64,000 nucleotides of DNA from Thermoanaerobaculia bacterium (GCA_041748075.1 JBGTDX010000036.1:58505-122504); one strand, 5' to 3'. Shown: positions 33,018-58,663, counted from the stretch's first letter. The notes: generated by a model not told the origin, from the letters alone. A program made the numbers and translations.

Positions 33018-33230
33018 CGTTCCCTGCGAAGTAGGCTCGTAGCCGAAGCCGTCGTAGGTTGCGGTCGTACGTCGCCGGTTGGGGAACGTAGCCCGCTCGA
33101 TGCGCGAGATCACCGCGGAGGCTACGTTCCGATTGGGAAACGGAAACGGAACCGGCCACAGTGACGGCTGCGGCGCGCCCTCCGCCCCCCTCACCGCTCT
33201 CATCCTCACCCATGTGCGAAAATGGCCGTA

Positions 33231-33917
33231 ATGCCGAAAAAGAAGGCGCCGTACTATCCGATCTATCTCGACATCGAAGATCGTGATGTGCTGATCGTCG
33301 GAGGCGGCGGGGTCTGCGCGCGGAAGGCGGCCGTTCTGCTTCGGTACGGAGCCCGGGTCACTGTCGTCAGCCCCGTAGTCGCCGAGGAGGTTCGGCGGAT
33401 GGCAGACGCAGGGCAGATCGTGCTGCTGGAAAAAAGCTACGAGCCGGACGACCTCGCCGGCAGCACGCTCGTGATCGCCTCGACCGATGATGCCTGTGTC
33501 AATGCCCGCGTGGCGCGCGATTCCAGGCGGATGCGCATTCCGGTGAATGTCGTTGACGTGACCCATCTCTGCGATTTCATCGTGCCCTCGGTCGTCGAGC
33601 AGGGATCGGTCCAGATTGCAGTTTCCACCAGCGGAAAATCGCCCGCGCTCGCAAGGGAGCTGCGGGCAGCGATCGAAGCGTCGATTGGCCCCGAGTGGAG
33701 TGAGGTCAACGACCTCCTGGGCCGCCTCCGTCCGATCGCGAAGAAGGCGCTCGCCTCGGACCGCGATCGGAAGGAACTGTTCGACTCGATCCTGAACTCC
33801 GGCGTGGTCAATCTGATCCGCGATGGCAGGCGCGACCAGGCCATCGAGCGGATCGCCGCCCTCTGCCGCGAGCGGGGAGTGCCTACCGCGGAGCTCCTGC
33901 CGCCCATCCCGGACTGA
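33231..33917 (+). CDS. Siroheme synthase N-terminal-domain protein (precorrin-2 dehydrogenase / sirohydrochlorin ferrochelatase, SirC/Met8-like)
   Basis: NAD-binding VLIVGGGGVCARKAAVLLRYGARVTVVSP and overall CysG N-domain layout. No uroporphyrinogen methyltransferase domain. Confidence 0.7.
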   Translation: MPKKKAPYYPIYLDIEDRDVLIVGGGGVCARKAAVLLRYGARVTVVSPVVAEEVRRMADAGQIVLLEKSYEPDDLAGSTLVIASTDDACVNARVARDSRRMRIPVNVVDVTHLCDFIVPSVVEQGSVQIAVSTSGKSPALARELRAAIEASIGPEWSEVNDLLGRLRPIAKKALASDRDRKELFDSILNSGVVNLIRDGRRDQAIERIAALCRERGVPTAELLPPIPD

Positions 33918-33920
33918 GGT

Positions 33921-35618
33921 ATGCGAAGCGATCGCAAGGCACTTCTCCTGGTGGTCGCGGTATGGGCCATCAGCACGGGACTCTGGCTCAACCCCGGAAT
34001 AACGAAGCCGGATGGAGTCGGCTATTACGTGTATCTCCCATCGCTCCGGATCGACGGCGACCTGCTGTTCTTCAATGAATGGGATCGCTTCGGGATGATC
34101 GACCGGGGAGTGATTCTCCACAAAGAGGTCACCGCGACGGATCATCTCGGCAACCACTGGACGATCGGGAGTGCGCTCTACTGGTTGCCCTCGTTCCTGT
34201 TCGCTGATCTTCTGCGGACGATTCCGGCGCTTGCGCTGTTTCCGCCCGACGGGGTCTCTCTTCCGTACAACGTGGCAGTTGGCTTCGCAAGCGCGGTTGC
34301 CGGACTGCTGACACTCCTGATGGGATTCCGCGTTGCACGGGAGTTCGTGCCGGTATTTCCCGCTGCTCTCGCAACGATGGGGCTCTGGTTCGGATCGCCG
34401 CTGCTTTTTTATTCAGTGAGGAATCCGATTCTCGGGCATGCGACGTCCGCATTTGCGTGCGGGCTTGTGTTGCTGCTCAGCCTCCGGCTGCGAGTCGAAC
34501 GGGCAGCGTTCTGCTGGTTTGCTACGGGGCTTGCGGCCGGTTTCGCATTCGCGGTGCGCCCGCAGAACGGAACGTTTCTTCTGATGCCATTCGTGATCGC
34601 GGCGGGCTCCGAACGCCCGCCTCTTCAGCGGATCGGTCTGGTTCTCAGCGGCTTCGCCGTGGCCGCATTGCCGCAGGTGATCGTCAGTTTCGTGCTCTAC
34701 GGTACTCCGTACGGATTTCTCACGGGTGGCGGCGCGGCAAAGCCCTTCGCCGCGTTCGAACGGATATGGATCTGGGAGCCGATCCTCTCCTGGTACCACG
34801 GTCTGATTCCATGGAGCCCCATCATTGCGCTGGGGCTCGCGGGGCTCATCCTGCTCTGGCGACGCGACCGGCTGCTGGCAGCCGCGGGGCTTTACGCGTT
34901 CGCTTCGCAGTGGTTCGTCAACGCGACCCTCGAGCGATCGTTCTGGGGTGCGCATGCGTTCGGTCAGCGACGGTTCGACAACTGCACGATCTTCTTTCTG
35001 CTCGGCGCCGCAGTGCTTCTCTCCCGATGGCCGCGCGCAGTGCAGGTGAGCATCGTGGCAGCGACCTCTGTCTGGACGATGTCGATATTCTTCGCGGCGA
35101 TGGGGCCTCTCGATCTCGGTGCGTACTACACGCCGGCTGAGCTGGCTGCCCTGCAGTGGGCGTCCCTTTCGAGTGTAGCCGGCTACCTGAAGCCGTTCGC
35201 CTCGGTTCCTCAGGCGATGAAGGGGATTGTCGCGCTTGTCTGCCTCTGCCTCTGTGCTGCATGGGTCGCAGCGGGCGTTCTGCTGTGGCGCTTCCGAAAA
35301 AACGGCGTTGCGCCGATTGCCGTCTTCGCCGCGGTTTACTTCCTCGTCATGAGCGGTGTCCTCGCATTCGCGGGAAGCACGGGACGAAGCCGGCTGATTC
35401 ACATGCAGTCGCTGATCGGCTTCAACCGGACGGTCAGCGCAGCGCTTGGCGGAGCCGACGCACGGACCGGTCTTCTGGCGGACGAAGCGAGGTACCTCAG
35501 AAAGGCGGGTCGCATCGAGGAAGCTGAGGCAACTGAAATGGAGTTGGCCGCGCTCGAACGCGCGCGGCGCGCCGGCATCGAGCGGCTGCGCGCGATGGCA
35601 GAGGAGGAGCGAAGGTGA
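33921..35618 (+). CDS. Polytopic membrane protein, putative GT-C-type glycosyltransferase with C-terminal coiled-coil/TPR-like tail
   Basis: More than 10 TM helices with a first extracytoplasmic loop rich in Asp/Tyr (PDGVGYYVYLPSLRIDGD). 4-nt overlap with the next gene. Confidence 0.5.
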   Translation: MRSDRKALLLVVAVWAISTGLWLNPGITKPDGVGYYVYLPSLRIDGDLLFFNEWDRFGMIDRGVILHKEVTATDHLGNHWTIGSALYWLPSFLFADLLRTIPALALFPPDGVSLPYNVAVGFASAVAGLLTLLMGFRVAREFVPVFPAALATMGLWFGSPLLFYSVRNPILGHATSAFACGLVLLLSLRLRVERAAFCWFATGLAAGFAFAVRPQNGTFLLMPFVIAAGSERPPLQRIGLVLSGFAVAALPQVIVSFVLYGTPYGFLTGGGAAKPFAAFERIWIWEPILSWYHGLIPWSPIIALGLAGLILLWRRDRLLAAAGLYAFASQWFVNATLERSFWGAHAFGQRRFDNCTIFFLLGAAVLLSRWPRAVQVSIVAATSVWTMSIFFAAMGPLDLGAYYTPAELAALQWASLSSVAGYLKPFASVPQAMKGIVALVCLCLCAAWVAAGVLLWRFRKNGVAPIAVFAAVYFLVMSGVLAFAGSTGRSRLIHMQSLIGFNRTVSAALGGADARTGLLADEARYLRKAGRIEEAEATEMELAALERARRAGIERLRAMAEEERR

Positions 35619-37180
35619 CGCGGTCCCGACTCGTGCTCGCCGCATGGCTGATGCTGGCACTTCTGCTCGTGCCGGTCTTCCCGCACTTCATTTCTCCGAA
35701 CGAATTCAGCCGCTGGGCGGTTGCCGCCGCCGTCGTGGAGCAGCGAACCATCGAAGTCTCGACGCTCTTGCCCATCCTCGGCTCACGACTCGAAGATCTC
35801 TCGGAGGTCGATGGACGGATTTACTCCAACAAAGCGCCCGGAGGGGTTCTCGTCGCCCTGCCGGGGTACCTCGCCGCCCGCGTGATCGCCGGGCCGCCAT
35901 CCGCGAGCTCGCTGCGGCCCGTTGTCTACGCGATGCGATGGGCGGGGTCGACCCTGCCTCTGCTGGTGCTGGCCGTAGTCATGGTGAGGCTCGCCCGCCG
36001 CTCCGGTGCGAGCGAAGACGCCGGCGCCTTTCTTCTGCTCTCCATGTTGTTCGGCACCATTTGTTTCACGTATGGCCTCCTTCTCTTTTCGCACGCGCTC
36101 ATCGCCGCGGCCCTGTTTCTCGCGTGGGTGCTGTTGTACACACGAAAGGCTGGCGGCGTCGGAGGCGATTATGCAGCCGGTGCCCTCGTGGGGCTCGCCG
36201 TACTCTCGGAGTATCCGGCCGCAGTTCCTGCCGCGGTTCTGGTGCTCGGTTCGTTTCGCCGTCACGATCCCTCCAGGCTCGTTCGAATCCTGCTCGGCGG
36301 CGCGCCATTCGCAATCATGCTGGCTGCGTACAACACAGCAGCCTTCGGTGGGCCGTTCCATCTCTCGTCGGGATATGAGCGTGCAGGTGAGTTCCGGGAG
36401 CTCGCGGGCTCCGGCCTCTTTGGAATCGGGCTGCCTTCTCCCGCGATCCTGCTGCGGCTGCTCTTTGACCCATCGAAGGGACTGCTGCTGTTTTCACCTC
36501 TGCTTCTTCTCGCGCCGATGGGATGGAAGCCTCTGCGCGCCGCCCTGGGCCGGCGCGCTTTGTTCACCCTGGTTGCTGCGCCGCTGTCGATCCTGCTTCT
36601 TTATTCGGGATATCCGAACTGGCACGGAGGCTGGACCGTCGGTCCGCGCTATCTTGTAGCGGCGTTACCATTTCTCTGTTTTCCGCTTGCATTCGTCTGG
36701 CGGGGGCGACTCGCCGCCTGCCTTGCTGGATACTCCGTGACGGCAGTTGTGGTCACGTCTCTGGTGTTTCCCTTCGTGCCGCCGGCGTTTCCTTTCCCCT
36801 GGGGATCGTTCGCGTTTCCTCTCATGCGTGACGGTCTGATCACGCCGAATGCTCTGCATTTCGTTTCTAGCGGGCTCGCGGTGATCGTTCCGGTGCTCGT
36901 GGTGATGATCGCACTGGTCGCGGTTTTCAGGAGCCGGGAGCTGCTGTTTGTAGCGGCGGGGATTCTTTTCGCGATGGCCATCGGCCATGTCGCCGAGCGT
37001 CATGTCGATCGATCGATCGGTGTGAGGATTCAGAGAGGTTACGTAGCGGAAGTCTACTTCCTGGATCGGGGTGCGCTGCCGGAGAGCGCCGGGCCGGGTG
37101 TGCCCCTTCCCGCCAGGCTCATCGAACGGTTGCGTTATGAAATGACGTTGCCGCCGACATCGTGGCCTTTCGAGGACTGA
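35615..37180 (+). CDS. Polytopic membrane protein, putative GT-C (ArnT/PMT-like) glycosyltransferase
   Basis: 12+ TM helices and N-terminal layout reminiscent of the PMT_2 family. Translationally coupled to the upstream GT-C-like gene. Confidence 0.55.
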   Translation: MTRSRLVLAAWLMLALLLVPVFPHFISPNEFSRWAVAAAVVEQRTIEVSTLLPILGSRLEDLSEVDGRIYSNKAPGGVLVALPGYLAARVIAGPPSASSLRPVVYAMRWAGSTLPLLVLAVVMVRLARRSGASEDAGAFLLLSMLFGTICFTYGLLLFSHALIAAALFLAWVLLYTRKAGGVGGDYAAGALVGLAVLSEYPAAVPAAVLVLGSFRRHDPSRLVRILLGGAPFAIMLAAYNTAAFGGPFHLSSGYERAGEFRELAGSGLFGIGLPSPAILLRLLFDPSKGLLLFSPLLLLAPMGWKPLRAALGRRALFTLVAAPLSILLLYSGYPNWHGGWTVGPRYLVAALPFLCFPLAFVWRGRLAACLAGYSVTAVVVTSLVFPFVPPAFPFPWGSFAFPLMRDGLITPNALHFVSSGLAVIVPVLVVMIALVAVFRSRELLFVAAGILFAMAIGHVAERHVDRSIGVRIQRGYVAEVYFLDRGALPESAGPGVPLPARLIERLRYEMTLPPTSWPFED

Positions 37181-37221
37181 GCCGAGGGCTTCCGGCAGAA
37201 TCGCCGCGCACGTTCGTTCCG

Positions 37222-38067
37222 TCAGGAGCGGTTGGAAACCTGTTCGGGGACCTCGGCTGGAACCGGAGGCGTGTCCTGCACTTTTTTCGTCCGGAAAATC
37301 GGATGCGAGTAAAGCTGCTTCTTGTGCAGCTTGTAGAAAAACATCGTCTTGAGAATTCCCAGTCCGTAGCGGGAGGCGCGCCAGAACCCGATCTGGGAAG
37401 CCTCCGGGAAATACCGCGTCTGGATGGGGACCTCGCGGATCACCATCTTGCTCGCCACTCCCTGAGCGATGATCTCAGTGTCGAAGATGAAGTCGTCCGA
37501 GTTCGCCTCGAGGTTGACCGTCTCGAGATAGTGGCGCGAATAGGCGCGGAAACCGGAGTGATATTCGGAGAGGAAGACGTAAAACGTCGCGTTCTCGATC
37601 ATGGTCAGAAAGAGGTTGGCGAAGTACTTCCACTTCGGCATGCCACCCTCGATGGGGCGGCCGCCCAGCATGCGCGAGCCGAACACCGCGTCGCATTCAT
37701 CGTTGAGCAGGGGCTTCACGAGCTCCGGGACGATCGTGGGGTCGTACTGGTGATCCGGATGCACCATGACCATGATCTCGCCGCCCAGCTCATCCATCGC
37801 GGTCCGGTAGCATGTTTTCTGGTTGCCGCCGTACCCCCGGTTCCGGGTGTGAACGACGGTGCGGATGCCGAGCTCCCTGGCCACCTCGACGGTCCGGTCG
37901 CGAGAGAGGTCATCGACCAGAAGGATCTCGTCGACCCACTCCTGGGGAATGTCGTTGTAGGTCGCGACCAGGGTTTTTTCCGCGTTGTAGGCAGGAAGGA
38001 CGACCACGACCTTCTTCGAGCGGCGGGGAGGAATCTCGTCCATATGAGGAGGGCTGGAGAATATCAC
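37222..38067 (-). CDS. GT2-family polyprenol-phosphate glycosyltransferase (Dpm1/CsbB/GtrB-like)
   Basis: VVVVLPAYNAEKTL...VDDLSRDRT and DxD region typical of GT-A GT2 enzymes. No TM core. Size of undecaprenyl-phosphate sugar synthases. Confidence 0.8.
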   Translation of the reverse strand: MIFSSPPHMDEIPPRRSKKVVVVLPAYNAEKTLVATYNDIPQEWVDEILLVDDLSRDRTVEVARELGIRTVVHTRNRGYGGNQKTCYRTAMDELGGEIMVMVHPDHQYDPTIVPELVKPLLNDECDAVFGSRMLGGRPIEGGMPKWKYFANLFLTMIENATFYVFLSEYHSGFRAYSRHYLETVNLEANSDDFIFDTEIIAQGVASKMVIREVPIQTRYFPEASQIGFWRASRYGLGILKTMFFYKLHKKQLYSHPIFRTKKVQDTPPVPAEVPEQVSNRS

Positions 38068-38178
38068 ACGGAATGCAGGAGGACGGAATGCTGAATCCTG
38101 CGTAAAGAACCGAGTCGCGCGGCTTTACTACTGCAGCGCCATCGGTTATACGAGAGCCCGTGAAGCCCGGAGGGAGTC

Positions 38179-38216
38179 CCATTCAACATTCTGCATTCCA
38201 CATCCAACATTCCGTC
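38179..38216 (+). repeat. Degenerate heptamer tandem repeat (CATTCAA/CATTCTG/CATTCCA/CATCCAA/CATTCCG) upstream of the YfhO-like gene
   Basis: Five consecutive 7-nt units read directly from the sequence. Confidence 0.4.
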
Positions 38217-38236
38217 CGCCGTTTTCAAACTCACCA

Positions 38237-40627
38237 ATGAACATGATTCCGGGTCAGAGGCGTGACTGGCTCGCGGTCCTGCTATTGCTCGGACTGGCCA
38301 CGCTTTTTTTTGCCGATGTCCTGTTCCTCGGCCGCAGCCTCTACCTGCGGGACCTGACCCGCTACTACTATCCGACCAAGAAGATCGTTCGCGAGGTGAT
38401 TTTCAGCGGCGAGATGCCGTACTGGAACCGCTTTTATTCGGCCGGCCAGCCGATGGCTGCGAATCCGGAGTACGAGATCTTTTACCCGCCGCAGTGGCTC
38501 GTCCTTCTGCCGTCGTACGACTTCGGCTACAGACTGCACATCGTCTTTCACGTTTATCTTGCCATCGCCGGGATGTACCTGCTGCTGCGTTCGATGAATC
38601 TTCAGATCCGCACGGCCTTCTTCGGAGCGGTGGTGTTCGCGCTGGGGGGCGTCTACCTGTCGCTGGTGAACCTGCTCCCGATCATGTTTGCGGTCGCCTG
38701 GATGCCGCTGATCTTTCTGTTCACACGGCGGTGCTTGTTGATGCCGAACCTGAGAGATTTTTCGCTGGCGGCGCTTCTCATGGGTCTGCAGATGCTCGTG
38801 GGAGAACCGACGACACTCGTTCAGACCTGGTTCCTGATGGGCTGTTACGGACTTTACCGGGCGTGGCATAACCCCGGCCGGCTCAGCGTCGTTGCGAGAA
38901 ACACGCTTCTCATCGGACTGCTTGGCGTAGCCGGACTGCTCGTCGGCGCCGTGCAGATGTTTCCGGCGATCGATCACGTGGGCGACTCGATCCGCTCGCG
39001 CCCGTTCGACTTCAGCCTCGTCACGGCATGGAGCATGCCGTACGCGAAGCCATTCGAGCTCATCTTTCCAAACGTCTTCGGACACATGGCAAAAGACAAT
39101 GTCGTCTGGTACTGGGCGAGCGGCCTGTACAAAGGTACCGGCTCGGCGTTCCTCTACAGCATCTATCCAGGGCTCGGAACCGCAGCACTTTTCCTTGCTG
39201 CCATAGCGGTGCGGCCGCGGGGCGGAGGTCTGGTGCTGGCCATCGTGGCAGCCTCGACCGTGCTGGCCCTCGGCGGCAACACGCCGCTGTTCCGGTTGCT
39301 CTATGACCTGAAGCTGGGCACGTCCGTCCGGTATCCGGAAAAATTCGCAATGATGGGACTCTTCGCGCTGCTGATGCTCGGTTGTTTCATGTTCGAGCGC
39401 GTGCTTCGCCGCGACCGCGCCGTGATTCAGGCGGCAATGGGTATCGCGCTCGGAACGGCGATCGTCGCCGGAGCGATTCTGATCTTCTCCTTCACCCCCT
39501 GGTACCAGGAGGCGTTCTCGAAACTGTGGGGAACCCGCGCTACCGGTCCGGCGAAGATCATGGCGGATATCTATCGGATCGACTGGGCCGTAGCGCTTGC
39601 GAGAGGGTTGATCCTGGTGGGACTGCTGTGGTGGGCAAAGGAAAAGGGGACTCCGACCCGGTGGTTTGCAGCCTTCATGCTTTTCGTCCTGCTTGATCTC
39701 GGAATGATCGGAAAGGAGCTGACGCCGACCCATGGCCGCGATTTCTTCACGCCCCCTCCGGTGGCCGCAACGTTCGATCAGGACAGGGAAAATTACAGGA
39801 TCTTTCACGAGGCCGACTGGTACGGCTCGACCGACACGGCCCGGAAGTATTTCTCGACGGGGAGCTCTGTCTACTGGGTCGTGCGCAATGGCCTCTACCC
39901 GATGACGCCCGCGACGTGGGGATTCTCCATGGTACTCGAGCGCGACTATGACAAGACGGCGCTGCTTCCCACCGTCGATCTGGTCGACGCGATGTGGAAG
40001 GTCAAGCAGGAACGGCCGGATGACTGGAGCGAGATCTTCATGGCTATGTCGAACGCCCGGTATCGCTCCGCCTTCGTGCCCTTTGAAGAGGAAGCGAAAC
40101 GGGTCAAGGGCAATCACAGGATCTCACGCCCCATGGAATTCGAGCGCGTGGAGGCGTGGCCCCGATATTACTTTGCCGAACAGATGGTGCGCGTCGAGGA
40201 TGCCGCCGAGTTCACGAAGATGCTGAGCGAGGCCTCATGGAGCCGAAGTGTCGCTTTCGTCCACATCCCGGCCTTCGAGCCCGCGGAGGGAGTCGTGAAA
40301 TCGGTCGAGGAGACGAACAACACGGCTCGAATCGAAGTCGAGAGCGAAGGCCGATCGTTTCTGGTCATGAGCGTGACGCCGCATAAGTACTGGAGTGCGA
40401 CCCTCGACGGCACGCCCGTCGAGCTGCATGTCACGAACATCGGGTACCAGGGAGTTGTCATTCCCCCGGGCCGGCATGTCGTGGAGATGCGCTACCGGAA
40501 TGATGTCGTCGTTGCGTCCGGCGGCATTTCAGTCCTCGCGACGTTGTGTCTGATCCCCATGGCCATCTTCCGGTGCAGGGCAACGGGCGCGGCCGAGCCG
40601 CGCGCGCATTCGCAGGGTGTCGAATAG
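38237..40627 (+). CDS. YfhO-like polytopic membrane protein (GT-C-type glycosyltransferase, paralog 2)
   Basis: 796 aa with N-terminal multi-TM core and C-terminal beta-rich periplasmic domain plus a final TM. Shares motifs with paralogs 1 and 3. Confidence 0.7.
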   Translation: MNMIPGQRRDWLAVLLLLGLATLFFADVLFLGRSLYLRDLTRYYYPTKKIVREVIFSGEMPYWNRFYSAGQPMAANPEYEIFYPPQWLVLLPSYDFGYRLHIVFHVYLAIAGMYLLLRSMNLQIRTAFFGAVVFALGGVYLSLVNLLPIMFAVAWMPLIFLFTRRCLLMPNLRDFSLAALLMGLQMLVGEPTTLVQTWFLMGCYGLYRAWHNPGRLSVVARNTLLIGLLGVAGLLVGAVQMFPAIDHVGDSIRSRPFDFSLVTAWSMPYAKPFELIFPNVFGHMAKDNVVWYWASGLYKGTGSAFLYSIYPGLGTAALFLAAIAVRPRGGGLVLAIVAASTVLALGGNTPLFRLLYDLKLGTSVRYPEKFAMMGLFALLMLGCFMFERVLRRDRAVIQAAMGIALGTAIVAGAILIFSFTPWYQEAFSKLWGTRATGPAKIMADIYRIDWAVALARGLILVGLLWWAKEKGTPTRWFAAFMLFVLLDLGMIGKELTPTHGRDFFTPPPVAATFDQDRENYRIFHEADWYGSTDTARKYFSTGSSVYWVVRNGLYPMTPATWGFSMVLERDYDKTALLPTVDLVDAMWKVKQERPDDWSEIFMAMSNARYRSAFVPFEEEAKRVKGNHRISRPMEFERVEAWPRYYFAEQMVRVEDAAEFTKMLSEASWSRSVAFVHIPAFEPAEGVVKSVEETNNTARIEVESEGRSFLVMSVTPHKYWSATLDGTPVELHVTNIGYQGVVIPPGRHVVEMRYRNDVVVASGGISVLATLCLIPMAIFRCRATGAAEPRAHSQGVE

Positions 40628-51905: not shown

Positions 51906-53099
51906 TCAGACGAATCGCACGAGGATGAATGCGATGTCGTCGCGAAATTCGTCGGTGGCCGAAAAGCTCGTCACGTCGTCGTACACAGCGTCGTAGACTC
52001 TTGACAGGTCCTTCACGTCTTCCCGTTCCAGGATGGCCGCAATGCGATCGATCCCATAGAACTCTCCGTCGACCGTACGCCGATCGGTGAGGCCGTCTGT
52101 GTAGAGGAACATCAGATCTCCGGGCGCCACCTCCACCTGATGCTCCTCGAATCCAAGCCCTGGTCTGGCTCCGACCAAATGGCCGGGTCGTTCAGTGGCA
52201 ATCGCTTTTCCTTTGCTGGCCTCGTAGTGAAGGAAGGGTGGATGGGCTCCGTTGGAAAAGGTGATGTTTTTGCCCGAGGGATCGAGCCTGAGAATCTGGG
52301 CAGTTGCGTACTGGGCCGGAAGACTGGCGCTCACCAGATAGTCATTCAATCGGGCCATGAATGCGGCCAGGGAGGGAGAATCGACGGCCTCGGAGTGAAG
52401 AAACGTCTTGAGAAGCGACACCAGGATCGCCGCGGGCAAACCGTGTCCGGAGACGTCGGCTACGAACATGTAGAGCGAGTCGCGCTGGGTGAAGTAGTCG
52501 TAAAAGTCGCCCGAGAGCGTCTCGGTCGGGATGTACGATGATCGAATTTCCGCGTGGGGCGTGGAGAAGTTTCTTTCAGGCAGCAGAGCTTCCTGAACGC
52601 GGCGGGCGATCTGGAGATCGCTGTTGAGGCGCTGATTGAGCTCCATGATCTTGTCGGACTTGTAACTGAGCTCCTCATAGAGTTGCCGGAGCTGTGCGGC
52701 CTGTTCGACGATGCGGTCCTGGTAAGCCTTCACCCGCAGGAGTGCGCGCACGCGGGCCAGAATGACCTCGATATCGGATGACTTGGTGACGAAATCGTCC
52801 GCTCCGGCGTCGAGGCCTTCGATCAGATTTCGAGACGAATCCGCTCCCGTGAGCATCAGCACGGGGATGGTCTGGAGTGCGGGATCGTTCTTGATCCGGC
52901 GGCATACCTCATAGCCGTCGAGTCCCGGCATCCGGTAGTCCACCAGAACGCAATTCGGTGAGACGTCCGGAATGATCCGCAGGCCTTCCTCTCCGGAGGA
53001 TGCGCAGTCGACCTTGTAGCCGGCGTTCTCGAGAACGCGACGGATCAGCTGCGCGTCGTTCGGATTGTCGTCGATGACGACGATGCGGTCACTCTTCAT
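51906..53099 (-). CDS. Response-regulator receiver fused to PP2C/SpoIIE-type phosphatase (RsbU-like)
   Basis: MKSDRIVVIDDNPNDAQLI... REC with phospho-acceptor context VLVDYRMPGLDG. C-terminal PP2C motifs (SGDFYDY, VADVSGHG, YTDGLTD). ORF-track N-terminal extension discarded. Confidence 0.8.
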   Translation of the reverse strand: MKSDRIVVIDDNPNDAQLIRRVLENAGYKVDCASSGEEGLRIIPDVSPNCVLVDYRMPGLDGYEVCRRIKNDPALQTIPVLMLTGADSSRNLIEGLDAGADDFVTKSSDIEVILARVRALLRVKAYQDRIVEQAAQLRQLYEELSYKSDKIMELNQRLNSDLQIARRVQEALLPERNFSTPHAEIRSSYIPTETLSGDFYDYFTQRDSLYMFVADVSGHGLPAAILVSLLKTFLHSEAVDSPSLAAFMARLNDYLVSASLPAQYATAQILRLDPSGKNITFSNGAHPPFLHYEASKGKAIATERPGHLVGARPGLGFEEHQVEVAPGDLMFLYTDGLTDRRTVDGEFYGIDRIAAILEREDVKDLSRVYDAVYDDVTSFSATDEFRDDIAFILVRFV

Positions 53100-53161
53100 G
53101 AAGGACAGCCATCGTAAACGCTGGCCTTCGCGGTGTAAACTCCGCTCGGGATGGCATGGGA

Positions 53162-53758
53162 ATGAAGTTGATCGTGGGGTTGGGAAATCCCGGCGCGGAA
53201 TACGAGAGCACACGCCACAACATCGGGTTCCGCGTCGTCGAAGCATTCGCCGCCCGGTACCGGATCGCCGTGGACCGCCATGAAAAGAACGCGATGGTCG
53301 GAAAAGGGCGGGTGGCGGGCAATGCCGTAGTCATTGCAAAACCGCTCACGTTCATGAACGTTTCCGGCTCGGCCGTGTCCCTGCTCGTCAGGGCGCATCT
53401 CGAGGCTCCTTCGGACCTGCTGGTCGTCTATGACGATGTCGACCTTCCTCTCGGAAAGATCCGAATCAGAGAAGGCGGATCGCCAGGGACGCACAATGGA
53501 ATGAAATCGATCGTAGACGCACTTGGTACCGACAGGTTTCCCCGACTGCGCTTCGGGATTCGCGGCGAAGACTTCGACGGCCGCCGGGATCTCGCGGATT
53601 TCGTGCTCGACCGTTTCGAGGAGGACGAGCAGGAGCAGGTCGCCGCAGGCGTTACCCGTGCCGTCGAAGCAGTTTTTCTGTTTGCAAGAGATGACCTTCG
53701 GCGGGCGATGAATCAGTTCAACCGTGATCCCGTTCCCGTCGAACCGGAGACTACCTGA
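53162..53758 (+). CDS. pth: Peptidyl-tRNA hydrolase
   Basis: MKLIVGLGNPGAEYESTRHNIGF...GTHNGMKS is a canonical Pth sequence. Confidence 0.9.
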   Translation: MKLIVGLGNPGAEYESTRHNIGFRVVEAFAARYRIAVDRHEKNAMVGKGRVAGNAVVIAKPLTFMNVSGSAVSLLVRAHLEAPSDLLVVYDDVDLPLGKIRIREGGSPGTHNGMKSIVDALGTDRFPRLRFGIRGEDFDGRRDLADFVLDRFEEDEQEQVAAGVTRAVEAVFLFARDDLRRAMNQFNRDPVPVEPETT

Positions 53759-55357
53759 ATGCGACATCTTCCCGCCACACTCGGAGAGCTTCGTGCGTCA
53801 GGCTACCGCCTGCGCAGTATCAAAGACGAATTGCGCGAGAACCTGCTTGGACGCCTGACCGCTGGCGAGCCGCTGTTCGAAGGAATTCACGGCTACGAAC
53901 GCACTGTGATCCCGGCCATTCAGAACGCGATCCTCTCGCGCCATGACATCATCCTTCTCGGGCTCAGAGGGCAGGCGAAGACACGCATCCTCCGTTCTCT
54001 CACGGACCTGCTCGATGAGCACATTCCCGTGATCGTAGGCTGCGAGATCAACGATTCCCCCTTCGAGCCTATCTGCAAGTCCTGCCGGCACAAAGCCTCG
54101 GAAAAAGGCGAAGAACTTCATGTCGAGTGGCTCGAGCCTGCCGAGCGTTATCGCGAGAAGCTCGCGACCCCCGATGTCACCGTGGCCGACCTGATCGGCG
54201 ACATCGATCCGATCAAAGCGGCAAATCAGCGACTGACTTATGCTGACGAAGAATCCATCCATTACGGGATCATTCCTCGAACGAACCGCGGCATTTTCGC
54301 CATCAACGAGCTGCCCGATCTCGCTCCACGGATTCAGGTCGCCCTGCTCAACATTCTCGAGGAGCGCGACCTGCAGATCCGCGGATTCCCGGTTCGCATC
54401 CCTCTGGACGTGATGCTGGTCTTCAGCGCCAACCCCGAAGACTACACGAGCCGGGGAAACATCATCACACCACTCAAGGACCGGATCGACTCGCAGATCC
54501 TCACGCACTACCCCGCGAGTGTCGAGACGGCGATGCGCATCACGCGCCAGGAGGCCTGGCTCGAACGGAAGGGTCTCGAAGCGACGATCGAGATCCCTGA
54601 GCTCGTCCATCAGCTCGTCGAACATGTCGGCTTCATAGCTCGCGAGTCCGAGCTCGTCGATCAGTCGTCTGGAGTCTCGGCCCGGATGTCGATCTCGGCG
54701 ATCGAGATCCTTCACTCGAATCTCGAGCGCCGCGCGGCACTCACTGGCGACTCGCTCGTCTACCCCAGACTCGCCGATCTGTCGATGATCCTTCCAGCAA
54801 TCACCGGGAAGGTCGAGATGGTCTACGAAGGCGAACAGCAGGGCTCCGAGGTCGTTGCAAGGAAGCTGCTGGGAGAAGCGGTGCTGCGGTTGTTCAGCGA
54901 GAAGTTTCCGCCGGTGGAGCGTGCTGGCAGATCGGCTGGCCCCGAAAGGCAGCGCCGCGGCTACGGTGAGCTCAACTTCGACGACGAAGGGAACTTCGGC
55001 AATCAGGAGAGAAAGAAGCCGGCGGCCGCGAGAGCTGACGCGGACTCCGGGAGTCCCCGGGTCCGCGGTGAAGCCGATTACGACACGATCGTCGAATGGT
55101 TCATGCAGGGAAACAAGATCACGCTCTCGGACGAGCAGCCTTTCGAGGTCTTCTTTGCCGAGCTGTCGCGTGTGCCGCTCCTTGCCGAAACGGCAGGGAA
55201 GTTCATGAATCCCCGGCATGACGGAGAGCTCGCCCTTGGGATGGAAATGATTCTGGAGGCCCTGCATCAGGCGCTGCGCCTGACCCGGGAGGATCTCGAT
55301 TCCACCATCACGTTCTCGGAACTGATGAAATTCAACATCCTCCGGACGGTGACCTGA
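53759..55357 (+). CDS. Magnesium-chelatase ChlI/BchI-family AAA+ ATPase homolog (orphan, with ~200 aa C-terminal extension)
   Basis: Start codon abuts the pth stop (TGAATG). Non-canonical Walker A LLGLRGQAKT, then the Cys-containing insertion GCEINDSPFEPICKSCRH (compare BchI EGCxxNCDP...LCxxCR), Walker B IFAINELPD, and a sensor/arginine-finger region. Confidence 0.65.
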   Translation: MRHLPATLGELRASGYRLRSIKDELRENLLGRLTAGEPLFEGIHGYERTVIPAIQNAILSRHDIILLGLRGQAKTRILRSLTDLLDEHIPVIVGCEINDSPFEPICKSCRHKASEKGEELHVEWLEPAERYREKLATPDVTVADLIGDIDPIKAANQRLTYADEESIHYGIIPRTNRGIFAINELPDLAPRIQVALLNILEERDLQIRGFPVRIPLDVMLVFSANPEDYTSRGNIITPLKDRIDSQILTHYPASVETAMRITRQEAWLERKGLEATIEIPELVHQLVEHVGFIARESELVDQSSGVSARMSISAIEILHSNLERRAALTGDSLVYPRLADLSMILPAITGKVEMVYEGEQQGSEVVARKLLGEAVLRLFSEKFPPVERAGRSAGPERQRRGYGELNFDDEGNFGNQERKKPAAARADADSGSPRVRGEADYDTIVEWFMQGNKITLSDEQPFEVFFAELSRVPLLAETAGKFMNPRHDGELALGMEMILEALHQALRLTREDLDSTITFSELMKFNILRTVT

Positions 55358-55360
55358 GCC

Positions 55361-55780
55361 ATGCCGCGTGTCTCTACCCGGATCTCGGGCAGTCTCGCCA
55401 GACAGATGGATCGGCTGGTTCGGGAGGGGTGGTATCGCGATGAAGAAGCGCTCGTTGCAGCCGCTCTGGAGCACTTCGTCGAGCACCGTTCGTTCCTTGG
55501 TGACTCCCCGGAGCTACTTGCTCAGGTCGCCTCCGATGCACTCGAAAATTCAAAGCCGGAGACCGCCCTGAAGTTCGCTGTGCGCGCGCTGACCCTTCTG
55601 GGGACGGGTCCGGGCGTCGATCTCGAGCTGTACAAGACACTCGTCGAGTTGAGGGTGCAGAGTCTGCTCGTCCTCGGACGCGATGCCGAGGCGAGAAGCT
55701 GCCTCGAAGAAGCGCGGGAGAAGTTGCCCAACAGTCCGGGAATCACAGGATGGATGAGACGAATGACGAATGACGAATGA
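55361..55780 (+). CDS. Ribbon-helix-helix (CopG/Arc-like) domain protein with helical C-terminal region
   Basis: N-terminal ISGSLARQMDRLVREGWYRDEEALVAAAL fits the beta-strand/helix/helix RHH pattern. The last ~8 codons are encoded by a GACGAAT heptamer repeat, so the 3' end is uncertain. Confidence 0.4.
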   Translation: MPRVSTRISGSLARQMDRLVREGWYRDEEALVAAALEHFVEHRSFLGDSPELLAQVASDALENSKPETALKFAVRALTLLGTGPGVDLELYKTLVELRVQSLLVLGRDAEARSCLEEAREKLPNSPGITGWMRRMTNDE

Positions 55781-55812
55781 CGAGTAAACCCGCAATCCGC
55801 AACCCAGAACCC
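55756..55812 (+). repeat. Heptamer tandem repeat (GACGAAT x4) plus CGCAATC/CGCAACC/CAGAACC units
   Basis: gagacgaatgacgaatgacgaatgacgag then cgcaatccgcaacccagaaccc. Overlaps the stop of the RHH ORF and the region upstream of the VWA gene. Confidence 0.55.
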
Positions 55813-55816
55813 TGAC

Positions 55817-56911
55817 ATGCGCCATCGCTACGGTTACCTCGACCCCGAGCTTCTCCAGCGCCTCCTCAGCGAAATCGGACTGCGGCGGCTGTTCAACCAC
55901 CTGCTTCTGCAGACGGGCGGAGACGTTGACGAGGCGATGGAATGGATGCGTGCGCTGCAGGAGAGGGGGTTGCTCGATCCGTCGATCGACCTCGATGCAT
56001 TCTTCGCCAGGCTGATGGATCACAACGTCATCGGCAGGGATGGCGAGGGAAACCTGACGCTTACCGCCGAAGGTGAGCGGTCCATCCGGCGGGACGCGCT
56101 GGACGAGATCTTCGGCGGACTCAAGAAGGCCAGCGCCGGCTACCACTCGGTGGCTTCTGCGGGTCAGGGAAGCGAGCGTCTGACCGAGACACGGGCGTGG
56201 CGTTTCGGTGACGACCCCACCTCCATCGACGGCGTCCGCACGCTGCAGAATGCGCTGAGAAACGGCGACCCCTCGGAACGGATCACGATCACCGAAGACG
56301 ACTTCGAGGTGTTCGAAACGGAGCACAACAGCAGCTGCGCCACGGTTGTGATGATCGACATCTCCCACTCCATGATTCTTTATGGCGAGGACCGGATCAC
56401 ACCAGCCAAGAAGGTGGCCCTCGCCCTTACCGAGTTGATCCTGACGAAATATCCCAAGGATGCGATCAACGTGGTGCTGTTCGGCGACGAGGCGACGGAG
56501 GTGCCGATCTCCGAGATCTCCTACGTTCAGGTCGGTCCGTATCACACCAACACGCGCGCGGGCCTCCAGCTCGCGCAGAACATTCTCCGGAGGCACAAGC
56601 ATACGAACAAGCAGATCTTCATGATTACGGACGGCAAACCTTCGGCTCTCACCGAGAGCGGACGTCTCTACACCAACTCATTCGGGCTCGACATGAAAAT
56701 CGTGAATCGCACGCTCGAAGAGGCGGATCGTTGCCGCCGCGCGCAGATTCCCATCACGACCTTCATGCTGGCCACTGACCCCACGCTGGTCAATTTTGTC
56801 GAACAGCTTTCCCGGATCAACCGGGGGCGGGCGTTTTACACATCTCCCGACCGGCTCGGTGAGTACATCCTGGCGGACTACATCCGCAACCGTCGCAAGT
56901 TCGTGCATTAG
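55817..56911 (+). CDS. von Willebrand factor A (VWA) domain protein, ChlD/BchD C-terminal-like
   Basis: MIDAS motif DISHS...T...D ([10 protein letters not shown] ... MITDGKPS) in the C-terminal ~200 aa. Unique N-terminal ~150 aa. Confidence 0.75.
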
Positions 56912-57013: not shown

Positions 57014-58663
57014 GTGCGTTCCTTTCTCCCGGCCTTCCTCGCGTTGCTCCTCGCGCTTCCTCTCACCGCGAACGATCTGGTCTACAGGCAACTTCAGTCG
57101 GGACGCTCGAACGGCCCGGCAACGATCCACGAGTACGGGCTTTTCGGCGAAGGTGAGATCATCGCAATTCTCGATACCGGACTCGACTACGATAGCTGCT
57201 ACTTCGCCGAGCCGGATGGATCGCCGCCTCCGGTCAATCTCTCACTTCCCGGCGGCGTTCTCCAGAGAGCGAACGTAGACCACAGGCGGCGGAAGGTCAT
57301 CGCGTACAACTTCCTTTATTCCTGTGCTGGAAATCCCGGCGCTCCCGGTTGTGAGGATCCTTCGGATCCGCGTGCGTACGATAATCAGGGACACGGTACG
57401 CATGCGGCAGCAGTTGCCGCCGGGGACCGAGGCCAGCCGCTGATTCACGATCTCGCCGATTCAATCGCGCCGGGCGCGCAACTGGTCATCCAGGATGCGG
57501 GATTCATCGGCGGCGACGATTGCACACAGCGTCCGGGGCTCGGGTGTCCACTTCGCGACCTTGGTCCGGTGCTCGAGCAGGCATATGAGCAGGGCTCACG
57601 CATCCACTCGAACTCATGGGGGGACCGGCAGGGCACCCCGCAGCCTATGACTCCGCCGACGGCGAACTATTCAAAGGCAGCCGCGGAGATCGACGCGTTC
57701 GTGCATGAACATCAGGACATGCTGGTGATCTTCAATACGGGGAACGCGGGCCAGCTCGGGTCCTCATCCGTGTCGGCGCCAGGCGTGGCGAAGAACGCAA
57801 TCCAGGTCGGAGGGGTGATCTCGTTCGAGGGGGAGCAGGCCGTCGCATCGTTCAGCGGCCGAGGTCCCACCCGGGATGGTCGAATCAAGCCCGATCTCGT
57901 CGCGCCCGCAACCATTACGGCCGGAGACAGCGACTTTGACGTCACGAGCGGAAGCTGCGATGTATCCCGTCAGACAGGGACCTCATGGTCCGCCCCCGCA
58001 GTTGCCGGCGCGGCAGCGCTCATAAGGGATTATTTCGCGAGTGGTTTCTATCCGGGTGGGTTCCGCTCGAGCGGCCCGCCGATGCGCGCAAGCGCCGCGC
58101 TGGTGAAGGCGGTGCTGATCGCCTCGGCCCGAAGCGTAGCGTGGGATGCGGCTACCGGACGTCTGATCCCGAGCGGCGCGGTTCCCTCGTTTCAGCAGGG
58201 CTTCGGCATGCCTGCACTCGACGATGCCCTCCATTTCGCAGGTCAGCCGCGAAGGCTGCTGGTTCTCGATCTGCAATCCGACCGCGGGCTTGCAGCCGGA
58301 GACGGGATGTCGATTCGATTACACGTGAGGGCGGTCACGCCTCTCAGAGTCGTCCTCGTCTGGACGGACCCTCCCGCGGAACCGCGCGGCCCGAGTGACC
58401 CGGCTCCGGTACTTGTAAATGATCTCGATCTCAGCATCCTCACGCCGGATGGCCGACGGCTGCTGGGCAACGATACGGCAGACAGTGCGGCTCGTGACCA
58501 GGTGAACAACGTCGAGGCAGTACTGATCCATGAACCTGTGCAGGGAGACTACGTGATCTCGATCTCCGGCGAACATCTGGCGCTCGGAGCACGCCAGGGC
58601 TATTCTCTTGTCGTGACCGGCGACATGGTGCTGACTGCGCGAAGCCGTCCTGCCCGCCGGTAG
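57014..58663 (+). CDS. Secreted subtilisin-like serine protease (peptidase S8)
   Basis: Signal peptide. Catalytic triad motifs [35 protein letters not shown]. Confidence 0.85.

Follow-up and report, generated by a model that had tools for sequence, protein, structure and literature searches.

The closest described counterparts of the gene pair analysed here are the Rv0958/Rv0959-type proteins, which share with it full-length ATPase homology including a Walker B motif ending in Asn-Glu (NE), a partner that combines Rv0959_3rd with a VWA/MIDAS domain, and same-strand adjacency of the two genes. Family orthologues include MSMEG_5512 (M. smegmatis) and MMAR_4541 (M. marinum). Previously, a set of B12-resistant mutants included one whose transposon lies 49 bp upstream of the M. 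marinum orthologue, the expression of Rv0958 in dormant M. tuberculosis was found to rise alongside that of tetrapyrrole genes (its role there being annotation-based), and the M. smegmatis orthologue was recovered by an RNA-polymerase-targeted cross-linking pull-down. We found no function-defining experiment on any family member, and the literature only repeats the annotation ‘magnesium chelatase’, which agrees with a preliminary description of the locus that regarded the function of the pair as not yet described. Family annotations vary (‘magnesium chelatase’, ‘sigma-54-interacting regulator’, ‘Ca-activated chloride channel homolog’, ‘VWA domain-containing protein’), and RefSeq plasmid records name the ATPase ‘sigma 54-interacting transcriptional regulator’.

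Several other systems share parts of this design. The chelatase proteins ChlI/BchI with ChlD/BchD, and ChlID (TIGR02442), have in common with the pair the logic of an AAA+ ring and a MIDAS partner. MoxR-type pairs (RavA-ViaA, CbbQ-CbbO, NorQ-NorD, CoxD-CoxE) are likewise remodelling or maturation modules made of an AAA+ gene and a VWA/MIDAS gene, and the present ATPase matches AAA_5; these systems adjoin client genes, whereas no client neighbour is conserved in the Rv0958/Rv0959 family. A VWA-like protein also accompanies PrkA/YeaG (YeaG-YeaH, DUF444), whose AAA+ core is related to the present one, as is that of archaeal LonB. Rea1/midasin, which acts in eukaryotic ribosome assembly, offers a possible functional analogy, through its AAA_5-type ATPase and a MIDAS by which an acidic client residue is gripped; midasin carries its six AAA modules on one giant polypeptide, and its likeness to our locus is at the level of domain superfamilies.

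Gene layout and family membership

The window, a 64-kb stretch of Thermoanaerobaculia DNA, contains one copy of the widespread and highly conserved Rv0958/Rv0959-type two-gene module, a family that is already catalogued. The ChlI-like ATPase gene (53759-55357, plus strand, 532 aa) matched AAA_5, Sigma54_activat and Mg_chelatase, and the gene of its VWA/MIDAS partner (55817-56911, plus strand, 364 aa) matched VWA_2 (1.8e-9). Between them lies a small gene of 139 aa (55361-55780, plus strand; TPR_14), 3 nt from the ATPase gene and 36 nt from the VWA gene. A perfect 7-nt tandem repeat (GACGAAT x 3.7; 55758-55783, plus strand; TRF score 52, 100% matches) covers its final codons and its stop codon. 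Upstream we found pth, encoding peptidyl-tRNA hydrolase (53156-53758, plus strand; Pfam Pept_tRNA_hydro 1.6e-62, TIGR00447 4.9e-53), and downstream the gene of a secreted S8 subtilase (57014-58663, plus strand; Peptidase_S8 1.1e-34). The genes of the preliminary description are real, with ORFs where it had placed them and domains matched by Pfam, and the abutment of the pth stop and the ATPase start (TGAATG) can be seen in the junction sequence, ACC TGA ATG.

The pair had been called an orphan, and this did not hold. Thousands of family members are recorded in databases, from nine phyla or more, and adjacency of the AAA+ and VWA genes was observed in Acidobacteriota, Bacteroidota, Ignavibacteria, Chlorobi, Planctomycetota, Zixibacteria, Fibrobacteria, Thermomicrobia and Actinomycetota. 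Among loci with adequate flanks, the VWA gene adjoins the ATPase gene in 57/68, and the two genes share a strand in 67/67; their order varies, and the gap between them has a median of ~108 nt. The remaining loci (11/68; Rhodothermales and others, plus L003) have no adjacent VWA gene, indicating that coupling is not obligatory at the level of gene order. Across phyla, the conservation of both proteins is unusually high (~50% identity), and their identities to the window proteins co-vary (r = 0.89).

In a Tsukamurella record with the order purN-purH-AAA-VWA, the ATPase is 41% identical to that of the window over aa 4-519, and residues 363-658 of the 659-aa partner are 31% identical to aa 66-361 of the window VWA protein. 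We take the order in M. tuberculosis to be the same, purN (Rv0956)-purH (Rv0957)-Rv0958-Rv0959. The window ATPase is also 45% identical to a Micromonospora protein (P0261), and the Micromonospora locus encodes an AAA protein with a 650-aa partner carrying Mb0984_helical, Rv0959_3rd and VWA_2. Unlike the 364-aa window protein, partners from Actinomycetota and Thermomicrobium reach 650-700 aa and have an extra N-terminal helical region (Mb0984_helical), and the actinobacterial loci have neither the small gene nor linkage to pth.

Comparison of gene neighbourhoods, which had been proposed as a check, showed that the AAA+/VWA pair is kept across phyla and that no third gene is conserved: no neighbour recurred among the 107 genes that flank the pair in other phyla (at most 4/107). 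The pth gene lies upstream of the ATPase gene only in Thermoanaerobaculia (L001-L005, L007, L084, L085), where the arrangement is also flanked by RNase R and serS. The S8 gene is directly downstream in L001, L084 and L085; in L004 and L007 it lies at a distance of 2-3.5 kb, L002 has none, and it is not present outside Thermoanaerobaculia loci. The neighbours that had made the context seem unusual are real, but having pth, the small gene and the subtilisin there is peculiar to this one class of Acidobacteriota. We regard pth as operon context outside the conserved module, and the subtilase is probably a mere neighbour of it.

Motifs of the ATPase and its VWA partner

The ATPase has an N-terminal extension, an AAA+ core (aa ~40-390), a low-complexity linker (aa 391-447) and a conserved C-terminal domain (aa 448-532). 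Its Pfam matches to AAA_5 (1e-8) and Mg_chelatase (1.3e-4) include a marginal one, since Mg_chelatase (PF01078) scored 21.9 vs 20.3 with no single stretch passing alone. A family profile searched against the PDB found ChlI (1.2e-15), archaeal LonB (5e-13) and BchI (1.9e-12), and no MoxR, RavA or CbbQ structure at E <= 0.01. Membership in MoxR (AAA_3, PF07726) was rejected at 16.5 bits vs a gathering cut-off of 27; AAA_3 was matched by 11/20 relatives at E <= 0.01, behind Sigma54_activat, AAA_5 and Mg_chelatase.

We confirmed the variant Walker A motif GLRGQAKT at aa 68-75 (53960-53983, plus strand), which reads GLRGQ[AG]K[TS] in 73/73 aligned relatives with an invariant K74. ChlI, the closest solved relative, shares the insertion that follows: in a phmmer alignment to ChlI 8osf, GCEINDSPFEPICKSCRH (aa 94-111; 54038-54091, plus strand) stands opposite ChlI's own IPVVANDPFNSDPSDPDLMSDEV, indicating that the insertion is positionally homologous. 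The ‘signature insertion’ of ChlI/BchI that had been reported therefore does align with ChlI, and a lack of such homology, named beforehand as grounds for dropping the assignment, was not observed. The Cys-rich part, however, is lineage-variable and is no ChlI signature; the Cys triad is found in 11/73 relatives, is Ser/Ser/Ala in Bacteroidota and is missing from ChlI.

The Walker B motif IFAINE (aa 179-184; 54293-54310, plus strand) has Asn for Asp, aligns with ChlI ILYVDE, and takes the form F[AVT][IVM]NE in 73/73 loci; one distant representative (P0323) has DE. With NE at this position, the ATPase might be slow, or a nucleotide-gated switch instead of a motor. Besides K74, the conserved positions include E184, sensor-1 N225, R242 and R309. 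In comparison with ChlI, the second Gly of Walker A is replaced by Ala and the Walker B Asp by Asn, and the ATPase has additional N- and C-terminal domains; the canonical Mg-chelatase motifs (GxxGxGK[ST] and hhhhDE) are replaced here by GLRGQAKT and IFAINE.

The VWA partner begins with a helical region (aa 1-~135) that may resemble a winged helix and ends in a VWA domain (aa ~170-364); its structure model was poor (pLDDT 55). The MIDAS DxSxS motif, DISHS (aa 181-185; 56357-56371, plus strand), is inside a near-invariant 21-residue segment. The MIDAS layout (D181-x-S183-x-S185 ... T244/T246 ... D272) is intact, and D181, S183, H184, S185, T244, T246 and D272 are invariant in 24 VWA sequences from ~8 phyla. 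A database protein 100% identical to the partner (P0391) carries PF27098 (Rv0959_3rd) and PF13519, as do all 120 listed relatives and L001, L002, L083 and L084, the PF27098 assignments being precomputed database matches. The VWA domain most closely resembles the ChlD type: 23/24 VWA relatives matched the VWA part of TIGR02442, and the window partner matched positions 416-584 only, which are this VWA part, at 25 bits vs a cut-off of 779. These profile and motif matches bear out the proposed pairing of a ChlI-like AAA+ ATPase with a ChlD-type VWA/MIDAS protein. A class I D-type partner (AAA-like N-domain, acidic/Pro-rich linker, VWA) was rejected as a description of the protein, which has a helical N-terminus and VWA, and the Pfam domain search found no AAA domain in its 364 aa.

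The small protein encoded between the pair

The small protein had been described as a ribbon-helix-helix (RHH) protein, and this stood in part. It appears to be an RHH-like N-terminus (aa ~1-45) fused to about two TPR-like repeats (aa ~46-139), which make up about two thirds of its length; the RHH part is weakly supported. The window protein matched only TPR_14 (25.9 bits vs a cut-off of 23.5) and no RHH model; TPR_14 was also matched by 33/34 relatives. Weak matches to RHH_1 (PF01402) were found in 6/34 relatives (best E 1.5e-3), and relatives carry the JGI label ‘Arc/MetJ-type RHH’. The AF2 monomer model (pLDDT 85) has a disordered N-terminal strand region (aa 1-9 unstructured), two helices (10-21 and 28-41) and then five TPR-like helices, which is compatible with an RHH whose strand would form on dimerising. 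The best Foldseek matches were peptide-binding TPR domains (RPAP3, Hop TPR1), although weak (E~0.01).

The protein has 1074 homologues, a mean column identity of 66% and an invariant FLGDSP motif. Its gene separates the AAA and VWA genes in L001, L002, L004-L007, L084 and L085, and was found in every complete Thermoanaerobaculia locus examined. Relative to the ATPase stop, the start of the small gene varies between a 4-nt overlap and a 3-nt gap in the window, L001 and L002, and lies ~70 nt away in L084 and L085. In the clade with the small gene, the ATPase linker is the longest (89-97 aa vs 52-65 aa in most others).

Proposed role and alternative explanations

Gene anatomy, motif conservation, family membership, phyletic spread and the lack of a conserved third gene were read directly from the data. 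To explain them, we favour a self-contained Rv0958/Rv0959-type module, in which a ChlI-like AAA+ ring and a MIDAS adaptor probably remodel a client. The ATPase, which belongs to the helix-2-insert/pre-sensor-1-hairpin group, would presumably assemble into a hexameric ring. The VWA protein would serve as the adaptor, its MIDAS gripping an acidic residue of the client or of the ATPase itself, and ATP binding and hydrolysis in the ring would lead to remodelling, assembly or release of the client. This mechanism is the most likely one by analogy with ChlI-ChlD, MoxR-type ATPases with VWA partners, and Rea1/midasin. The NE Walker B, the loci that have no adjacent VWA gene (11/68) and the poor VWA structure model count against this reading. 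In Thermoanaerobaculia the module lies downstream of pth, with probable translational coupling to it, and a small RHH-TPR protein would have been acquired between the two genes. Most plausibly, this protein is an adaptor specific to the lineage, with its TPR part binding a peptide from the client or from the linker or tail of the ATPase; its RHH part could also, or instead, make it an autoregulator.

Alternatively, the pair could provide the I/D-like motor subunits of a class I ATP-dependent metal chelatase whose ChlH/CobN-type cargo subunit is encoded elsewhere in the genome; such an enzyme could, for example, insert cobalt or magnesium, or carry out another tetrapyrrole metalation or de-metalation. 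Its closest sequence relatives are ChlI/BchI, BchD and ChlID-type ‘putative cobaltochelatases’, and both the M. marinum B12-resistance insertion and the rise of Rv0958 with tetrapyrrole genes in dormancy point the same way. The window also contains the sirC-like gene noted earlier, at 33222-33917 (NAD_binding_7 and Sirohm_synth_M), which sits 20 kb from the pair amid unrelated genes. Against this, scores were 10-25 times under the cut-offs: 32.8 bits vs 466.95 for BchI-ChlI (TIGR02030), 35.7 vs 500 for BchD-ChlD, and 30.7 vs 779 for Cob-chelat-sub. On this ChlID-type model a placement among the cobaltochelatases, the other refuting outcome named beforehand, was not seen. The partner is without the AAA-like N-domain of ChlD, and Walker B is NE. 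In line with the preliminary description, no ChlH/CobN or porphyrin gene was found near the pair in the window or among the neighbours of ~80 loci, and the window has no ORF >796 aa, so a full-length ChlH/CobN cannot be encoded there. Furthermore, the family occurs in a Chlorobi MAG and in Flavobacteriia and Chitinophagia, and the latter two usually have no CobN/ChlH-type chelatases. By the features tested the pair is not a Mg- or Co-chelatase; we consider a chelatase motor unlikely, and a tetrapyrrole chelatase subunit is an improbable client. A Lon/PrkA-like regulator of proteolysis, cooperating with the adjacent S8 peptidase, is very unlikely. LonB modules came second only to ChlI in the profile search and AAA_PrkA was matched by 5/20 members (4e-7), but the similarity is limited to the stretch of the core from Walker B to sensor 2, neither the ATPase nor the VWA protein has a protease domain, and there is no kinase domain or SpoVR/YcgB-type third gene. 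The S8 N-terminus is hydrophobic and signal-peptide-like, suggesting export away from a cytoplasmic ATPase, and the S8 gene is absent or displaced in three loci of the class (L002, L004, L007).

It is hardly credible that the pair is a sigma-54-dependent activator or an anti-phage vWA-MoxR conflict system, even though 19/20 members matched Sigma54_activat, 4/20 weakly matched bpMoxR, and RefSeq uses the sigma-54 name. The defining GAFTGA motif is missing, also as G[AS]F[TS]GA, which already contradicts an activator identity, and no HTH/DNA-binding domain was matched. The family also occurs in Actinomycetota, which to our knowledge have no sigma-54. PADLOC models matched none of the ATPase, the small protein and the VWA protein, the family had no phage matches, and the plasmid collection (PLSDB) gave only 4 matches, all of them non-mobilizable, chromid-like records of 0.4-11.9 Mb. 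By these searches the family is neither mobile nor a known defence system; its gene context is also stable and housekeeping-like, and its sequences are very highly conserved. A more serious question is whether the RHH-TPR gene has any functional link to the pair: it could be a passenger, such as a domesticated gene of antitoxin or regulator type that inserted at a permissive intergenic site. In other phyla the AAA/VWA slot is occupied by unrelated insertions, namely RelE/ParE-like TA modules (L016), GIY-YIG (L073), a DUF559-like gene (L038), an HpcH-like aldolase (L009, L011), an MBL hydrolase (L053) and an M1 peptidase (L007), so this gene could be a passenger too. RHH folds are typical of antitoxins, and the protein weakly matched epsilon antitoxin in the PDB (E 0.18). 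However, no toxin partner is present, and the constant presence of the gene close to the ATPase stop, its strong conservation including FLGDSP, and the longest linker in the carrier clade all argue for a tie to the pair. We therefore regard the passenger explanation as doubtful, while giving it some weight.

Returning to the remodelling module, the pair might be the bacterial equivalent of Rea1/midasin and other MIDAS-dependent remodellers, with a universal, strongly conserved gene-expression client (ribosome, RNA polymerase or a tRNA-linked complex). Cross-phylum conservation, the lack of a linked client gene and the RNA-polymerase pull-down in M. smegmatis are compatible with such a client, to which we give only a slim chance. 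If true, the gene order in Thermoanaerobaculia (pth coupling, RNase R, serS and an added TPR protein as adaptor) would give a first hint from genomes that the module takes part in translation quality control. Categorically the window holds nothing new, yet it marks a gap: an AAA+/MIDAS module that is ~50% identical from Acidobacteriota and Bacteroidota to Actinomycetota, including Rv0958/Rv0959. The failed chelatase, MoxR and bacterial enhancer-binding tests, the Asn-for-Asp Walker B and the lack of a conserved client gene are inputs for characterising this family, and the Thermoanaerobaculia-specific RHH-TPR protein may provide a handle on its binding partner.

Gene layout around the pair

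The ORF map and the junction sequences revealed four tightly packed genes on the plus strand: pth (53156-53758; Pfam/NCBIfam match at 1.6e-62), the gene of a 532-aa AAA+ ATPase (53759-55357), a small gene encoding 139 aa (55361-55780) and the gene of a 364-aa VWA protein (55817-56911; VWA_2 at 1.8e-9). The pth/ATPase junction reads ACC TGA ATG, the ATG of the ATPase lying directly 3' of the pth TGA stop, and the next spacers are 3 nt (ATPase to small gene) and 36 nt (small gene to VWA gene). An S8 peptidase gene (57014-58663, 549 aa; Peptidase_S8 at 1.1e-34), whose product has a signal-like N-terminus, starts 102 nt after the VWA gene. A sirC-like gene (33222-33917; NAD_binding_7 and Sirohm_synth_M) is located 20 kb from the pair and adjoins SHMT and unrelated ORFs. 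The ORF map, junctions and domain matches agree with the preliminary description on this layout, on the TGAATG junction, on the variant Walker A GLRGQAKT (ATPase aa 68-75) and on the distance to the sirC-like gene. No ORF of the window exceeds 796 aa, so that a full-length ChlH or CobN cannot be encoded in it.

Scanning 50-60 kb for promoters, terminators and Rfam families returned nothing over background, and a search for operator-like repeats in the 56-nt interval 5' of pth found just short repeats at chance level. This divergent interval (53100-53155) separates pth from a response-regulator-SpoIIE gene on the minus strand and contains two copies of GTAAAC 17 nt apart, the interval being too short to evaluate them. 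Taken at its longest, the ORF of this response-regulator-PP2C (SpoIIE) gene (51906-53246, minus) overlaps pth; its likely start is the Met of MKSDRIVVIDD at about 53099, and its homologues are 377-397 aa long. Directly 3' of the sirC-like gene, we also observed four consecutive large plus-strand ORFs (33921-40627; 565, 521, 310 and 796 aa) with no Pfam match at E <= 1e-5, in a region where the AT skew is strongly negative (-0.24 at 34-38 kb).

The ATPase and its MIDAS-bearing partner

The ATPase matched AAA_5 (1e-8), Sigma54_activat (6e-5) and Mg_chelatase (1.3e-4), and its top phmmer match in the PDB was ChlI (8osf, 4e-8). With a profile built from 20 diverse relatives, ChlI (1.2e-15) ranked above archaeal LonB (5e-13) and BchI (1.9e-12), followed by sigma-54 activators and MCM; no MoxR, RavA or CbbQ chain was returned at E <= 0.01. 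Among the 20 relatives, 19 matched Sigma54_activat, 18 AAA_5, 17 Mg_chelatase, 11 AAA_3, and 5 each AAA_PrkA and MCM. The profile ranking and the Pfam matches place the ATPase in the helix-2-insert / pre-sensor-1 group, outside every curated family.

The Walker A reads GLRGQ[AG]K[TS] family-wide, and the Walker B is F[AVT][IVM]NE in 73/73 loci, with Asn where Asp is usual. Catalytic-type residues are kept (K74, E184, N225 as sensor 1, R242 and R309), and a motif search found no GAFTGA loop in the ATPase. The ATPase is a conserved ChlI-like AAA+ protein with an Asn-variant Walker B, and is probably active. The insertion GCEINDSPFEPICKSCRH (aa 94-111) had been described as a ChlI/BchI signature. 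It does align with ChlI, since the phmmer alignment spans it and sets ipvivgceindspfepickscr of the ATPase opposite IPVVANDPFNSDPSDPDLMSDEV of ChlI, but its Cys triad is complete in only 11 of the 73 loci, found in Thermoanaerobaculia, some Ignavibacteria-like bins and one Planctomycetota. Bacteroidota have Ser/Ser/Ala at these positions. As judged from the alignments, the Cys triad is not a family signature.

In the VWA protein, the MIDAS (D181-x-S183-x-S185, T244/T246, D272) is present in full and without substitution in all 24 sequences compared, which come from about 8 phyla, and sits in a near-invariant stretch of 21 residues. The protein has no sequence relative in the PDB. Since 23/24 members weakly match the VWA part, and only that part, of the ChlID-type model TIGR02442, "ChlD-like VWA" is a fair description; together with the PDB profile of the ATPase, this upholds the ChlI/ChlD-like identity proposed earlier. 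For the N-terminal ~135 aa, profile searches of PDB and Pfam yielded no significant match, only hints of UBA-like and winged-helix domains, and the AF2 model of the VWA protein was poor (pLDDT 55) and unusable.

A widespread pair with a lineage-specific third gene

The pair had been called an orphan, a label that does not hold. Homologues of the ATPase and of the VWA protein number in the thousands each (at least 8000 candidates), and a complete HMMER scan over representatives at 50% identity found 678 clusters at E < 1e-30. PF27098 "Rv0959_3rd" is among the precomputed Pfam assignments of database copies of the VWA protein. In a Micromonospora locus, the gene that follows the ATPase encodes 650 aa with Mb0984_helical, Rv0959_3rd and VWA_2; Thermomicrobium carries the pair too. 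A Tsukamurella record shows the order purN-purH-...-ATPase-VWA, which is also that of M. tuberculosis Rv0956-Rv0959. The window ATPase is 41% identical to the Tsukamurella ATPase over its full length, and aa 66-361 of the VWA protein are 31% identical to Tsukamurella 363-658. A scan of GTDB species representatives confirmed at least 599; the best 80 loci comprise Acidobacteriota, Bacteroidota, Ignavibacteria, Chlorobi, Rhodothermales, Zixibacteria, Eisenbacteria, Planctomycetota and Fibrobacteria. A mobile-element or defence origin was rejected on the absence of the family from phages, its presence in only 4 "plasmid" records (all non-mobilizable, 0.4-11.9 Mb) and the lack of a match among PADLOC models. 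N-terminally extended database matches, considered as fusions, were over-called ORFs or chimeric or frameshifted fragments.

In 68 loci with adequate flanks, the ATPase and VWA genes adjoin in 57. The two genes are always on one strand (67 of 67 loci), AAA>VWA being the order in 25 and VWA>AAA in 42, with a median gap of about 108 nt. Identity to the window proteins co-varies between ATPase and VWA protein (r = 0.89). The VWA partner is obligately MIDAS-bearing and co-evolves with the ATPase. The neighbourhood check proposed in the preliminary description confirmed this adjacency, but nothing else is conserved across phyla: all-against-all ORF clustering of 82 loci found no third gene or client common to phyla, and no Pfam family occurred in more than 4 loci among the 107 nearest neighbours.

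Three Rhodothermales loci (L020:3407-5613, L028:3735-5968, L035:3777-5968) have the ATPase without an adjacent VWA gene. In them the ATPase is preceded by the gene of a conserved 345-aa lipoprotein of no known family and by a gene of 384-398 aa, which in L020, the single one scanned, encodes an HtrA-like trypsin-PDZ protease. A hidden VWA partner in the VWA-less loci (Rhodothermales and L017) was rejected, as the adjoining 345-364-aa ORFs, one of them a lipoprotein, are unrelated by hhalign; the downstream genes encode a TonB-dependent receptor and ThrRS.

The pth gene 5' of the pair and the 139-aa gene within it were found only in Thermoanaerobaculia (L001, L002, L004-L007, L084, L085). A further locus of this class, L003, also has pth; there, neither the VWA gene nor the small gene is adjacent. 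Neither the pth linkage nor the small gene occurs in a second acidobacterial clade (L008-L012) or in any other phylum. The S8 gene lies directly 3' in some Thermoanaerobaculia loci, 2-3.5 kb away in others, and L002 has none. The label of an unusual context does not hold either: the arrangement is confined to this lineage, with the S8 gene not a constant part of it. Between the response-regulator-SpoIIE gene and pth, L001 (6708-7365) and L084 (2084-2744) carry a HepT/MNT (nucleotidyltransferase) toxin-antitoxin pair that is absent from the window. In L003 (7572-7700, 9100-9300) and L005 (7707-8150), the DNA just 3' of the ATPase gene or of the small gene is repetitive, visible in ORF translations as recurring peptide units, with AESQSRRV repeats and ~100-nt units as examples.

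The small protein has 1074 homologues, all of about 137-145 aa; alignment columns average 66% identity, and the motif FLGDSP is invariant. In its AF2 model (pLDDT 85), aa 1-9 are unstructured and helices 10-21 and 28-41 are followed by five TPR-like helices. TPR_14 was matched by 33/34 relatives and RHH_1 by 6/34 (best 1.5e-3), and Foldseek returned peptide-binding TPR domains (RPAP3, Hop TPR1; weak, E~0.01). From the model, these counts and the Foldseek matches, the protein is a putative RHH-like N-terminus joined to a short TPR module and not a plain RHH repressor; the RHH assignment made earlier may apply to the N-terminus, and most of the protein is TPR-like. The ATPase linker is longest in the clade with the small protein (89-97 aa vs 52-65 aa in most others), a match that is a single-lineage coincidence without statistical weight. 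A perfect tandem array of the heptanucleotide GACGAAT (3.7 copies, 55758-55783) covers the last codons and stop of the small gene; as seven is not divisible by three, gain or loss of units would change the C-terminal residues.

Intercalated genes of other phyla, considered as analogues of the small gene, were unrelated passengers (TA modules, GIY-YIG, DUF559-like, HpcH-like aldolase, MBL hydrolase, M1 peptidase). In Bacteroidota, the short VWA-ATPase gap is repeatedly filled by small selfish-looking genes (L016:5945-7489, L038:4940-6001, L050:253-799, L070:5408-6001, L073:5368-6001), read from sequence as two RelE/ParE-like TA pairs, DUF559-like, GIY-YIG and GxxExxY/PD-(D/E)XK-like genes, and looks like an insertion hotspot.

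Possible roles of the pair

By analogy with ChlI-ChlD, MoxR-VWA pairs and midasin, the ATPase would form a hexameric ring, the adaptor would grip an acidic residue via its MIDAS, and ATP would drive remodelling of a client. A tetrapyrrole chelatase motor is one reading of such a pair, and it is weakened by several observations. The ATPase was rejected as BchI-ChlI (32.8 vs an NCBIfam cut-off of 467), BchD-ChlD (35.7 vs 500) and Cob-chelat-sub (30.7 vs 779), scoring 10-25x under the cut-offs. Its partner is without an AAA-like domain. The H-type subunit is missing from every neighbourhood examined; neither the ORF clustering nor the 107-neighbour Pfam survey contained ChlH/CobN or tetrapyrrole genes, bearing out the earlier remark that none are nearby. 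Furthermore, the family occurs in lineages that are not known to have CobN/ChlH chelatases.

Our literature search found no functional study of Rv0958/Rv0959 or orthologues, in line with the earlier view of a function not yet described; published mentions of Rv0958 and orthologues are incidental, and none tested a function. Rv0958 or an orthologue appears on an RNAP-targeted cross-linking AP-MS list, with no DNA recovered with the protein (PMC7092591), and as a ClpC1 interactor (PMC10433963). B12-resistant M. marinum mutants include a transposon insertion upstream of the Rv0958 orthologue (PMC11237697), and dormant M. tuberculosis showed altered Rv0958 expression (PMC10774309). That the pair is a MIDAS-dependent remodeller of gene-expression machinery is a reading we consider improbable.

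Taken together, the locus is one member of a catalogued family, with a lineage-specific third gene, and the genomic behaviour of the pair is housekeeping-like.
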